Assembly (NCBI GenBank): GCA_965645245.1
Contig: OZ287084.1
Coordinates: forward strand, 372,001 to 436,000
Direction: 5' to 3'
DNA length: 64,000 bases
From: Massalongia carnosa
Taxonomy: Eukaryota
The notes beneath the pieces were generated by a model, which was given only the letters and a program-made list of their open reading frames with translations, did not search any database and was not told the origin of the DNA. The first letter of the stretch is position 1, and each line of letters opens with the position of its first letter. Positions 48,960 to 53,888 of this stretch are shown one piece after another. Position numbers and translations under genes: made by a program.

Positions 48960-50728
48960 ATGGATGCCATTTTGCCGCAGCTTCTCGCCTTTCCTCCTCA
49001 CCCACCGTCACTTATTCCGTTGCCGGATGCCGAGTACGACAAGCAGATCAAGAGCTTGGTTCAGCTACTCAACCAGATACCTGCAAATAAGCTCACCGGT
49101 GGTGTGACGGCAGGAGGTGATCTTTTAGATGTATGGTTTCTTTTTCTACATTACTTTTGGATCGCTCACTAATGCTGCCTTGGCTGTGGTAGATTCTGAA
49201 TCCATCCATTAATACGCTTCCATACCTCTTCGCCCTCCTCGCTCACGTGAATGGCTCAAGCGGCAAGCAAGCGACTAGAACTCATTCCAAGAAAATCCCT
49301 TTAGATGGGCAGTTATGGCGCAAAATGGTGGAGTTCTTGGATACATTTGATCCAGTACAGGTCAGATATGGAGGTCCAGAGTTCAGACGCCTAATTGAGG
49401 TTGTCGCGAGGACAGCAAACGCAGATTCAAACGTAGGACTGACTCATGTACCATACCGAAACCTATGCACCTGGCTGATCTTGTGTAGCCGTTTTTCGCT
49501 GTGGGCCCAATCAGATCAGCACTTCTACGCCTAGACTCTTCAAGTTCTTGCTTCACATCTTTACACTTGCTGTTTGTTCGCCTTTGTCTTGGGGCAAAAG
49601 ATTTCATTGGCGCCTTGCCTATTCTTGACAAAGATATCTCCCATATCATTATGGGTTCGGACCGTGGATACGGTTATGCAAACACACGTTACCTGTGCGC
49701 TCATCACGACTCTGGTTCTACCTTTATCACAAATGCATCAGGTCTATCAGACAAGCTAGAATATCTAGATCATTTACAGTATTTCCTTTATGGTGCAATG
49801 ATCTACATGGCTCTCAAAAAATGGAAGCGTGCACTTTTCTTCTTAGAAATAGTCATCATGTCTCCAGCGAACAACACGGCCAGCATGATACAGGTCGAGG
49901 CTTACAAGAAATGGGTTCTTGTAGGGCTTTTGCTCAAGGGGAAAGTACGGATTCCCTCCCTCAAGTCTTTCCCTGCTGGCTACGAGGCTTATCTCGTTAT
50001 AGACTTCACCATTACCGAAGACTATTACTTCTCAAACAGTGAAAATCTACGCAGCCCTCGCTAAGTCATATGACAACCTTGCAAAGACCTTTGAGGATGG
50101 CATATCAGGGGAGACTAATGCAAATAGACTAGTTGCAGAATCAAATGCAGGGGAGGCTGTGTGGCGTGAGGTATGTCTGCCCTTCAGCACAACACTCAAG
50201 TTTTAGGAATATCCAATAACAACGGTTTAGGACTGTAATAGTGGTATTGTGAAGCAGGTCATTGATGCTTTTCGTCGTACCTCGATATCTACGCTTGAGA
50301 AGACTTACGTATCTCTTCCCATTTCTGATGTGGCACATCGGACCTCGCCAGAGCCGAAGAATTATGCCGAAACTGCGGCCTATGTCGAATCATTGATTTC
50401 GGCTGGTCACCTTAACGCTACGCTTACAAAATCGTCAGAAGGACCTCAGACCTGGGCCTTGCACTTTGCAGAATCAGCCACAACTGGCCCACAGGCGCGT
50501 TCTGAAGTACACCAACTCGAAGATCTTGTTGGCTATATAAATAGCACGGCGAAGCTCATTGACCGTGTTCAAGAGGCCAACCGACGTATGGGACTGAGCA
50601 GGGAGTACATCGACTGGTCCAAGAAAATGCAAAAGATGAAGAAATCTATGGGAGCTGGGGAGCCGAGCCCGTTTATCAGTACGGGCGAGGACTGCATTGC
50701 CGAGGAAGATATGATGGCAGATCTGTGA
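48960..50728 (+). CDS. CSN3: COP9 signalosome subunit 3 (PCI protein)
   Basis: FDPVQVRY, FTSLHLLFVRLCL, LQYFLYGAMIY and SMIQVEAYKKWVLVGLL; four GT-AG introns. Confidence 0.85.
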
Positions 50729-51408
50729 AAGATTCCAGCTGTATAAACCTTTTTATGATAACGACGGCGTTGATCTTCAGCAAGTGCTGCTGAAGATTTC
50801 ATATCATGCTGATGTTAGGGAGGCAGGCGTTGGCAATACCAGCAATCATGAGTCTTCTCAGTATTTGAAAGCCTTAAAGAGTAATCGCACGTGCAATCTT
50901 TAAGGTGATTCCTGGTGGGATAAGGATGAACTCGACTACTTTCCACAACTACCTATTTGGGCCCTCACCTTGAAAGTGGCAGTCAGGTAATCCACGCACT
51001 CACCCTTCTCACTTGTAGTTTGCAACAGCAACTGATGATAATGTAAGCTGAATGGGCATAACTGCTTATGCAGTGTCAATAAAGATGTCTCAGTTGAAAA
51101 ATAGCAAGTAATAGTGTAAACATATAAGTCAAAATGATTTAACTACAAACATCGCGCCTAGTAACTACTCTACTGGGCGGGAAGCATCTCTTTAGGAGCT
51201 TTTGACGCGCGTATGTAAGGCCTTGTCCTTTCCCCGCGTTGCCTTAGATCACGTGTTCACTTCCCTTGCCACCGGTAAAAAATGCGGTCATGATGTCCGA
51301 TTTCCGTTTTATTTCATGGACTAACAACCTCTTATTCAACAAATCTAACCCACGCGAACAGAGTTGTCACCACTTAACACTTCATCTACAACAACAGCTC
51401 CCATCGCA

Positions 51409-52246
51409 ATGCTGAGAAGAGCAATCACGATAGCACCTCGCCGAGCTGGCAGGACCCTCTCAGTAGCCTCAAGACCATGTATGATCTCAGTACCACACTC
51501 TCTTGCCCCAGCATCCGTCCCATTGCGGAGAAGCTATCATGAAAAAGATAAGTCTCTCAGCCCTCCCAATTAAACACTAAATATGCTCTATTATACCTTC
51601 TTCCGCATCTTTTTCAACTAACGTCCCTTCTCCCATCCACTGCTCGACCACTACAGCTCTCCCCGAAACGTCGGCTCTATGACTAAAACCGACAGGGACG
51701 TCGGCACGGGCCTTGTCGGTGCGCCAGCCTGCGGTGATGTCATGAAGCTTCAGATCCGCGTTGATCCTAATAGCAACACCATCAGCGACGTCAAGTTCAA
51801 GACGTTTGGGTGTGGAAGCGCAATCGCAAGCAGTAGCTATTTGACTGAACTTGTCAGAGGTATGACGCTGGAAGATGCAGGGAAGATTCGAAACACAGAG
51901 ATTGCAAGAGAGTTGTGCTTACCACCTGTCAAATGTGAGTTTTCTGAGTTGGAGTTTTTGTTATAAATTTTCGGTATTTTTTTTCTTTGTGATATTCTCG
52001 AGAGACATCCTTTTTCGGCTCCCCCCTACGGATATCAAGCCAAAGGATCTACAGTACGCTGACAAGAATCCAGTGCATTGCTCCATGCTCGCCGAAGACG
52101 CCATCAAATCCGCAATCTCAAATTACTACACCAAAAACCCAAAAGCTGCCACTACAAACCTTTCCGGCACCGCTTCCACCCTGCCGAAAGTTGAAGTAGA
52201 AACCATTGCTGAGCCTGAAGCGCAGCAGCAGGCTGCGATGGCTTAG
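51409..52246 (+). CDS. ISU1: Mitochondrial Fe-S cluster scaffold Isu1/IscU; exons 51409-51547, 51641-51934 and 52074-52246
   Basis: Arg-rich presequence; YHEK(V)LDHYSSPRNVGS, GLVGAPACGDVMKLQI, FKTFGCGSAIASSS and LPPVK|LHCS. Intron 1 has AT-AC ends. Confidence 0.95.
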
Positions 52247-52346
52247 GCGTGCAAAAGGGGTTGAAGAGATGTGAGCTGCAGTTTACTTAAAGGGTAGGGA
52301 TGCGAAAGTAAAGTTTTGGAAGGGACTTGACGACGGTAAAATCTGT

Positions 52347-52366
52347 GGGTGGGTGGGTGGGTGGGT
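52347..52366 (+). repeat. (GGGT)5 tract, potential G-quadruplex downstream of ISU1
   Basis: Five perfect GGGT units about 100 nt after the ISU1 stop. Confidence 0.7.
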
Positions 52367-53888
52367 GTACGATGTATAGAGGTATGCTAGTGGGAGGTTG
52401 AAAATCGTAAGGAAAGTGAAGAGCGTCAACTTCTATTATATCATGGAAGGGGTTATGAATAGCAACTAGGTAAGGAAAGGTTCGAAAGCGCAGTGGTCAG
52501 TCCAAGGAGCGTTCGCAACTACCTGCAATAGGCGTTGGAGGTGTGGCAAATAGGTGTTCCTGTTATAGTGTTGTTTCACAACAAATCAAAACCACGTTCT
52601 TTGAACGTTATCAGGATATTGCGATTCTGTTAACTTGCGTTCTTAGGCGGGTGAGATGTGGGGGGAAATGAGTAATCCATTACTCCTAAACCCAGTTTTG
52701 TTACATAATGTTTGCACCTATATCTACCTACACAGGTATGCTTTAAAAAATATTTCTAATGAGTACCTACCTATCTATAATAAATAGAACATAAGCCCAC
52801 GGCCGAGGTAATATCACGGAGCCTACAGGGTATGGGCTTAGAGTATGAATAGTCATAAAAGGGGTTTTGGCGTTCGACCTCCTCGTACTATACAAAGTAC
52901 ATCTACCTGTATGTGGAACGCTAAAACTGGAAACCCCCATATTCACGATTGTGCGAACACATGTGCTAAACTCCCTATCTTCATCCCAAGTAGGTACAGG
53001 TACCCCTTAATCCAGGAATGAGTAACCGGAGCCTCGGAAGAACCCAAAATAAGTAGCCAAACAAAAACCGAGGCAAAAGCGCATCGTTATGCTTGCAAGA
53101 GGACCAACTTGAACCCCCCGTTCTCTTAAGGACTTCCGTTATTGTTACATATAAGCTGCGGTGGGTGCGTAGACTGAAACGTGCTTCGGCGTGACGTTCC
53201 CTTTGCTGTTTGATCCATCGTATTATATGTAAGTTGCCCGATTATTTGGAATCGCTATTCATAAGCATGTATACCCATCCGAGTGGATTGATAACCCGAT
53301 GTGTGAGCTTCCAATGGGCCGCAACGGCTTGCAGCATTCAGAGCAGATGTTAAGATAGCATGGATCTCTGACCAAGTCAGTCTCATTGAATTTGATGTCG
53401 GGGCTTTGTTATGGAATATCCCTATTCGGGAGGAAGGAGGATCCTCGTTTGATAGAGTCAGATCGTTCAACCAATTGGCAACACCCTAGGTATACCCGTG
53501 GAGAAAATTCTCAACGGACTAGAACATATCCCTATTCTCCGCCAACACATCTATCGGTATTTGCTGCGATTAGGAAAGCCCGAACATCAAGCGCTGCACT
53601 CGTGTTTTTTTCGGCACCTTCGGAGGATTTGCTGCATGATCAAACCACACGTGAACTCCCACCACGTAAGCAGACATATCAGACCGTATCCATTCGTTGC
53701 TGCCTAGTGAATGGTTGAGATTGATTGGGGTCATGAAATCAAATGGGTTTTAGAGCACAATCAAGAACTGTAGATGCTGCATCCAGGGATGACCATCGAC
53801 TACATATGCTCGTCGCTTGCGCCAGCTCCTCTTCGTGTTGTCGTCATCCCTGAACTGATCACCTGATTCTGATCTAGCACGGCACATT

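Follow-up and report, generated by a model that had tools for sequence, protein, structure and literature searches.

Evidence for a conserved AT-AC intron with U2-type signals in the ISU1 gene of Massalongia carnosa and other Pezizomycotina

Introduction

The ISU1 product is indispensable in the fungi that have been studied. Here, we report that the ISU1 homolog in a 64,000-nucleotide (nt) stretch of DNA from Massalongia carnosa (GCA_965645245.1, contig OZ287084.1, positions 372,001 to 436,000; hereafter, the window) is interrupted by an intron that begins with AT and ends with AC and that otherwise carries U2-type signals. The explanation that best accounts for all of the observations is that this is a genuine intron that is removed by the major spliceosome, that it was ancestral in Pezizomycotina, and that its two ends have since been locked together. 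We place the probability of this explanation as a whole at roughly 0.85. The evidence that carries it comes from the structure of the gene, from DNA loci and proteins of relatives, and from pairs of transcript-like and genomic sequences.

Structure of ISU1 and Placement of the Intron

The ISU1 gene (51409-52246; plus strand, as are all features of the gene) comprises three exons and encodes a protein of 201 amino acids (aa) under the AT-AC gene model. The coding sequence of exon 1 (51409..51547) starts with an ATG at 51409, stays open to the donor, and specifies an N-terminus resembling a mitochondrial presequence that ends in ...RRSYHEK plus the G of a Val codon, the DNA reading ...GAA AAA G. 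The intron that follows (51548..51640; 93 nt, phase 1) opens with the 5' splice site AAG/ATAAGT (51548..51553), which is the GTAAGT consensus with its first G replaced by A (G1>A) and is shared with relatives. It contains a branch-site-like CTAAC (51618..51622) whose branch A at 51621 lies 19 nt from the 3' splice site, and it closes with a pyrimidine-rich tract and a 3' splice site, CAC, that is YAG with G replaced by C (51623..51640). Retention of the intron would append DKSLSPPN to exon 1 before an in-frame TAA is met at 51571..51573. Exon 2 (51641..51934), which encodes the NifU_N/IscU core, begins TG CTC GAC CAC TAC and is separated from exon 3 by a second intron of 139 nt with canonical signals (51935..52073; GTGAGT...CTGAC...CAG). 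Exon 3 (52074..52246) extends from LHCSMLAEDAIK... to a TAG stop codon at 52244-52246.

When position 51547 is joined to 51641, the 201-aa product contains ...RRSYHEKVLDHYSSPRNVGSM... (YHEKVLDHYSSPRNVGS at the junction). A single open frame then holds YHEKVLDHY, three Cys-bearing motifs (GAPACGD, FGCGS, and LHCS), and LPPVK; we take these motifs to define the IscU/ISU1 family, and their conservation is itself seen in relatives. Exon 2 alone matches the NifU_N family PF01592 (E = 2.2e-38; 131.7 bits against a cutoff of 22) over profile positions 7-102 of 127. Because the alignment of exon 2 starts at profile position 7, the preceding residues must come from exon 1.

To enumerate canonical alternatives, all GT and GC donors between 51420 and 51599 were paired with all AG acceptors between 51560 and 51799 and the frame was kept open; not one of these pairs retains VLDHY. 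The stretch from the TAA of CTAAC to the codons for LLDHY is also free of AG. Nor can the AT-AC junction be shifted, since the bases that flank its two ends differ. The AT-AC intron had originally been proposed from the window alone, in a sequence-only reading which held that YHEKVLDHY is rebuilt solely by the 51547/51641 junction and that the nearest GT/AG alternatives would delete or corrupt VLDHY. The enumeration upholds that claim, and every coordinate offered with it, from the intron borders, donor, branch site, and acceptor to the in-frame TAA, proved correct. Homology at the protein level determines where the junction lies, and the recurrence of the same ends in relatives, described below, is more than chance.

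The accuracy of the window was evaluated with contigs assembled from DNA in four public runs from two studies (X1-X4), among which there was no RNA run. Contigs from X1, X2, and X3, which belong to one study and have depths of 396, 105, and 818, respectively, cover 51300-52337 with 0 differences. A 333-nt contig from X4 (depth 11.5), which stems from the second study and a differently coded organism, covers 51460-51792, also with 0 differences. X1-X3 are possibly the source data of the window assembly, and X4 is the more independent check. An assembly error at either end of the intron had been named at the outset as something that could make the intron illusory; because the contigs of all four runs show 0 differences at both ends, the intron ends are not an assembly error.

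Conservation of the AT and AC Ends Among Relatives

Screening of metagenomes with exon 2 returned 80 loci, six of which looked fungal (L001-L006). Three of these relatives carry an intron at the same phase-1 site, and in all three it reads AT...AC. This intron is 105 nt long in L001 (AAAG/ATAAGT...GCTAAC...CTCAC/TG), 128 nt in L002 (AAAG/ATAAGT...CTAAC...CAAAC/TC), and 90 nt in L006 (positions 1109-1198 of that locus; AAAG/ATACGT...GCTAAC...GCAC/TT). The last locus is Terfezia-like, with 99% identity over 67 residues to Terfezia boudieri, a Pezizomycete. With the window included, the distance from CTAAC to the 3' end is 11-21 nt in 4/4 loci, and retention of the intron results in a stop or a frameshift in each of them. 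The interiors of the introns have diverged (39/93 to 56/93 identity) and exon 2 is 73-81% identical at the DNA level; with AT and AC at the ends in all of them, this indicates that the ends have been conserved against a diverged background. The comparison across Pezizomycotina that the sequence-only reading had put forward as a check finds AT...AC in 3/3 intron-bearing DNA loci, and the same ends occur in several classes when the proteins described below are included. The remaining three loci (L003-L005) are contigs of 1.0-1.4 kilobases (kb), each with a single uninterrupted open reading frame (ORF) that lacks both introns and reads YHEKVLDHY.

Two further features of L006 were recorded. A GT-AG pair (GTAGTA...CCAG) is nested inside its AT-AC intron, offset by +4 and -6 nt from the two ends, and its use shifts the frame. 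In addition, a canonical intron that is absent from the window interrupts the GAPAC/GD codon of L006 (1289-1363).

An alignment of the introns also revealed a short block, CCGCATCTTTTT in the window (51603..51614), that lies upstream of the branch site and is common to the L001 and L002 introns. In these three otherwise diverged AT-AC introns, the block (CCGCATCYTYTT) is positioned 4-22 nt upstream of the branch site; it could be due to chance, to shared ancestry, or to a role as a splicing element.

Proteins of relatives provide a second line of evidence, because many of the proteins in databases are ORFs called on genomic contigs of fungi without regard to introns and hence spell out the ends of the intron. 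We examined 230 proteins and dropped two bacterial-type fusions, which left 228 fungal-type proteins. An uninterrupted YHxKV(L/I)DHY is present in 118 of the 228. Sixty of these run on into intron 2 and represent genomic DNA without intron 1; the other 58 also lack intron 2 and represent complementary DNA (cDNA) or curated models. Among the interrupted proteins, 20 read YHEK-D, in which the codon G/AY gives an A at intron position +1. Next comes K (10), T (5), E (3), I (1), or N (1), in line with ATAAG, ATAC, and ATGAG donors. Eighteen others start with M[KR]K[IM], the +1 frame of ...ATGARAAAG/AT[A/G]. YHEK-G, the reading expected from a GT donor, is found in 0/228 proteins. Overall, the first intron base is A in 38/38 readable 5' ends and G in 0/38. 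At the 3' end, Leu stands in place of the mature Val in 78 of 79 readable cases, which makes the final base of the intron a C or a T rather than a G. Immediately before the junction, the proteins have A (27), P (17), L (17), S (13), V (3), or T (2), and each of these residues is compatible with ...YA/C.

One protein, P0129 (298 aa, on a 7.9-kb contig), reads through an in-frame AT-AC-type intron 1 (YHEKDKSSSS...VLLDHY) and has no intron 2. Its architecture indicates that intron 2 can be lost while the AT-AC intron stays.

Transcript-Like Sequences and Public Gene Models

Indirect support for the junction at the RNA level comes from the cDNA-like L003-L005, with their intact motif, and from the Terfezia lineage. 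Protein P0123, encoded by contigs no longer than 1559 nt, is an uninterrupted ORF of 179 aa in which none of the three L006 introns is present; it reads ...RRNYHEKVLDHYS... (YHEKVLDHY). Over the 126 residues that it shares with the T. boudieri genome model P0121, the two are identical, and both share two substitutions relative to L006. The N-terminus of P0121, MRKIPALLDHY, is what results when L006 DNA is read from the ATG inside CATGAGAAAG and the nested GT-AG is used (ATAC/GTAGTA...CCAG/CTGCAC). Most simply, the genome of this lineage has AT...AC and the intron-free ORF P0123, as a transcript, would carry the product of the AT-AC junction. On the comparative evidence, P0123 included, the first half of what the sequence-only reading had inferred, that ISU1 has a natural AT-AC intron with U2-type signals, holds. 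Two public models of Paraphaeosphaeria minitans differ only in that P0208 has YHEKVLDHYN where P0227 has YHEKDESPFAHALASVDHYN, a difference that is consistent with the AT-AC junction of the Terfezia pair. With P0208, at least one public model already has the correct junction.

Incorrect N-termini of ISU1 were detected in at least 20 named public fungal models, as had been anticipated from the window alone with the claim that gene predictors would mis-annotate the intron. Such N-termini are what standard gene finders limited to GT/GC-AG introns produce. The twenty (P0049, P0058, P0063, P0072, P0110, P0117, P0119, P0121, P0122, P0133, P0147, P0155, P0171, P0175, P0180, P0182, P0184, P0185, P0224, and P0227) are from Physcia, Didymella, Trichoglossum, Sarcosagium, Periconia, Heterodermia, Candelina, Terfezia (2), Coniosporium (3), Cirrosporium, Paraphaeosphaeria (2), Mytilinidion, Pycnora, Byssothecium, Aaosphaeria, and Lophiostoma. 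In these models, the presequence has been lost, intron-derived residues have been included, or VLDHY has been deleted. Six further named models (P0141, P0156, P0196, P0207, P0212, and P0222) have their start at a Met within exon 2. The species behind the named models whose N-termini are intron-derived or wrong in other ways fall into four classes: Pezizomycetes, Lecanoromycetes, Geoglossomycetes, and Dothideomycetes. When the exon-1 peptide was used to look among longer proteins for the complete spliced product of M. carnosa itself, 0 of 99 candidates scored E ≤ 10.

Spliceosome Type and Comparison With Known Introns

By its signals, the ISU1 intron is best read as a U2-type AT-AC ("type II") intron. 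AT and AC ends are located at the junction that the protein requires, the donor is /ATAAGT (ATACGT in L006), and a CTRAY branch site is accompanied by a pyrimidine tract. The claim that U12-type signals are absent likewise extends beyond the window: a U12 donor (ATATCC; ATATCCTT-like) was found in 0/4 introns (window, L001, L002, and L006), and a U12 branch motif (TCCTTAAC-like; T[CT]CTT[AG]A[CT]) was also found in 0/4. A search of the 64-kb window with Rfam at gathering thresholds returned 0 matches.

Removal by the major spliceosome is the most likely mechanism given this analysis. The donor would be recognized through its otherwise perfect match to U1 and U6, and the branch site would be recognized through U2. 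The second step may then proceed by way of a compensating first-last nucleotide pair, A first and C last, as it does in double mutants that combine G1>A with a change of the last G to C.

U2-type AT-AC introns have a strong /ATAAGT consensus (PMC5029451), and the offset between branch site and 3' splice site is about 11-20 nt in fungi (PMC4324775). The class was defined as 'AT-AC II' by Sheth et al. (2006), with 15 cases in human, 6 in mouse, and 3 in fly (PMC1557818). The same source reports that G1>A is rescued by a change of the last G to C in yeast and human, with splicing that is less efficient than that of GT-AG introns, and that AT-AC II cases have been hypothesized for xylanase genes of filamentous fungi (PMC1557818). 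Surveys of Ascomycota and Basidiomycota describe no convincing minor introns and almost no minor snRNAs (small nuclear RNAs; PMC10639083, PMC2846911). AT-AC junctions have also been reported, at low frequency, in RNA sequencing of Pezizomycotina, where they account for 69/14305 in Trichoderma longibrachiatum and are few in Fusarium graminearum, and they make up 0.03% in SnowyOwl models.

Among known systems, the ISU1 intron resembles the U2-type AT-AC II introns of human SCN4A/SCN5A and human/Drosophila TAF2, which, as far as they are described in PMC1557818, share with it /ATAAGT, a U2-type branch site, a pyrimidine tract, rarity, and conservation in orthologs. It differs from them in that its host phylum is reported to be without a minor spliceosome, in that it is very short (93 nt), in that its spliceosome dependence is read from sequence, and in that it has been kept across at least four classes of Pezizomycotina. 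The A...C pair and the presumed use of the major spliceosome are the same as in the engineered G1>A plus last-G>C introns of yeast and human (Parker and Siliciano, 1993, cited through PMC5029451 and PMC1557818). Unlike those laboratory constructs, however, the ISU1 intron is natural and has long been maintained. With U12-type AT-AC introns it shares the terminal AT and AC, whereas the ATATCCTT donor and TCCTTAAC branch site of that type are missing in 4/4 introns and the phylum is reported without a minor spliceosome. A nested AT-AC junction in RPL30 of Saccharomyces cerevisiae (Gould et al., 2016; PMC5029451) offers a further parallel in an ascomycete without a minor spliceosome. However, that junction is described as a side product of 1-2% with a 5' site unlike /ATAAGT (PMC5029451), whereas in ISU1 no junction other than the AT-AC one would lead to a functional mRNA, and the intron fits the consensus of U2-type AT-AC introns.

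The novelty that the sequence-only reading saw in the intron was overrated, since the U2-type AT-AC /ATAAGT class had been described and, according to PMC1557818, already hypothesized in filamentous fungi. We found no published account of an AT-AC intron in ISU1, of its conservation across classes, or of its mis-annotation, in a search of literature that was mostly outside subscription journals and did not extend to supplements. The kind of intron is already known; what would be new is the ISU1 case, its cross-class conservation, and the systematic mis-annotation.

Evolution of the AT-AC State

In the lineages sampled, the site holds either an AT-AC intron or no intron, and conversion to GT-AG was never seen. 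Presence of the AT-AC state in Terfezia and in leotiomyceta classes suggests that it arose at or before the ancestor of Pezizomycotina. The state would have been present in that ancestor and, since then, either kept or lost together with the whole intron. Because A1 combined with a final G, or G1 combined with a final C, is defective in the mutants cited above, neither end should be free to change without the other. The easy exit would then be to lose the intron entirely, probably by way of reverse transcripts. Such an epistasis lock could account for the long conservation of the ends without any regulatory role.

Several points weigh against this explanation. For M. carnosa itself, the junction is read from DNA contigs. 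The RNA origin of P0123 is judged from its lack of all introns and not from library records, and the same holds for L003-L005, which look like cDNA on account of their missing introns. The protein counts are counts of 90%-identity clusters that are not phylogenetically independent, the proteins narrow intron position +2 no further than T or C and are no more than 'compatible' with a penultimate A, and that very pattern served to select the 18 M[KR]K[IM] starts. Protein P0059 (start MRKSW), if in the same register, would give AGY or TCN at positions +1 to +3. The absence of U11, U12, U4atac, and U6atac is taken from phylum-level literature, and the epistasis lock is reasoned from the intron states seen in the lineages sampled.

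Alternative Explanations

It is also conceivable, albeit doubtful, that the ISU1 intron is a relic of an ancestral U12-type AT-AC intron that survived when Dikarya lost the minor spliceosome because its internal signals had switched to U2-type, with its ends kept, then frozen by epistasis throughout the history of Pezizomycotina, and intron loss as the sole exit. The first intron of animal ISCU presumably lies near the same place in the protein.

A second possibility, which is compatible with the explanation that we prefer, is that the AT-AC ends have been kept because they render splicing inefficient and open to regulation by iron, stress, or nonsense-mediated decay. This was the other half of the inference made in the sequence-only reading, and we found no pointer to it. 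The lower efficiency of A1/C-last introns relative to GT-AG introns in yeast and human tests (PMC1557818), the premature stop or frameshift that retention causes in 4/4 loci, and the age of the AT-AC state would all fit such a role. However, the intron is gone from 60 genomic gene calls of relatives that keep only intron 2, which indicates that it is dispensable, and its interior is not conserved save for the one 12-nt block. Conservation of both ends is predicted just as well by epistasis alone. We regard a regulatory role as improbable.

Much less likely still is that the true junction is canonical and that the AT-AC ends are not used. The nearest in-frame GT-AG pair, TAA/GTCTCT...CTACAG/ (51552..51656, plus strand; 51551 joined to 51657), is in frame and open, and it would yield a protein that contains YHEKDNSPRNVGS and from which VLDHYS has been deleted. 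Comparable solutions appear in the public models of some relatives, namely P0171 (YHEKDINPRNVGS) and P0180 (motif deleted). However, the GTCTCT donor agrees with the fungal GTRAGT only at positions +1, +2, and +6. The AG of its acceptor is part of an AGC Ser codon in place of which L001, L002, and L006 have TCC or TCT, which suggests that this junction is not conserved and is an accident of the present sequence. A profile made from 58 full-length relatives gave the AT-AC model 313.5 bits and an alignment from position 1, whereas the GT-AG model obtained 289.5 bits, 24 bits lower, and lost profile positions 1-8. The motif that it would delete is, moreover, intact in 118/228 proteins of relatives and in all of the cDNA-like contigs.

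Two other routes were considered and rejected. Two-step or nested (stwintron-like) splicing does not lead to canonical ends, since the A that follows 51547 remains in place no matter what is taken out of the intron interior. Use of the nested GT-AG of L006 as such a route would leave 10 extra nt and shift the frame. Read-through of the intron as an in-frame insertion meets the stop or frameshift found in all four loci.

The preferred reading also presumes that the window holds the working gene, and it is highly improbable that the copy seen here is an ISU paralogue that is in decay or is not expressed, or that the intron ends are sequencing errors, with a second, intact gene as the functional one. 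A paralogue could lie in the genome outside of the sequence at hand, and expression of this copy is viewed from DNA only. However, the frame is open through each of the three exons, GAPACGD, FGCGS, and LHCS with their Cys residues are kept, the same architecture is present in relatives across classes, and both intron ends are identical in contigs of two studies. Between the window and L001, exon 2 is 95% identical at the protein level and 81% identical at the DNA level; the changes are mostly synonymous, which indicates purifying selection on exon 2. The only other IscU-like contigs in the same runs have depths of 2-3.3 and read LPPVKI, as in bacterial-type hits. These low-depth contigs probably represent other organisms of the same samples and not a fungal paralogue. 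Those of X1 and X3 (depths of 2 and 3.3 vs. 396 and 818) match only the most conserved 40 nt, at 52076-52117 of the window.

Finally, removal by a retained minor spliceosome as a U12-type intron is scarcely credible: AT-AC ends are typical of one U12 subtype and minor snRNA genes could lie outside of the 64-kb window, yet 4/4 introns have ATAAGT or ATACGT with CTAAC and are without ATATCC or a TCCTTAAC-like motif, and the surveys of Ascomycota find neither minor introns nor minor snRNAs (PMC10639083, PMC2846911).

Sequence Features Flanking ISU1

Three features were observed in the DNA around the gene. A CACGTG palindrome (E-box-like) is located at 51250-51255, about 155 nt 5' of the ISU1 ATG. 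Downstream, a (TGGG)n microsatellite is located at 52346-52368, about 100 nt 3' of the stop codon, and the contigs of all four runs stop at 52337. Further upstream, an open frame of 165 aa (50231-50725, plus strand) had no match in Pfam at E ≤ 0.001 and is probably the last exon of a neighboring gene.

Implications

The mis-modeling of ISU1 has a practical cost in that the mitochondrial presequence or the conserved motif is dropped from gene models and the error spreads into protein databases. For the biology of splicing, the intron would provide a natural and deeply conserved test case for the interaction between first and last intron nucleotides in the major spliceosome, with no minor spliceosome to confuse the result. 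The pattern at this site, AT-AC or no intron and never GT-AG (0/38 donors with G; 60 genomic calls without the intron), may likewise serve as a clean example of an evolutionarily locked pair of splice sites.

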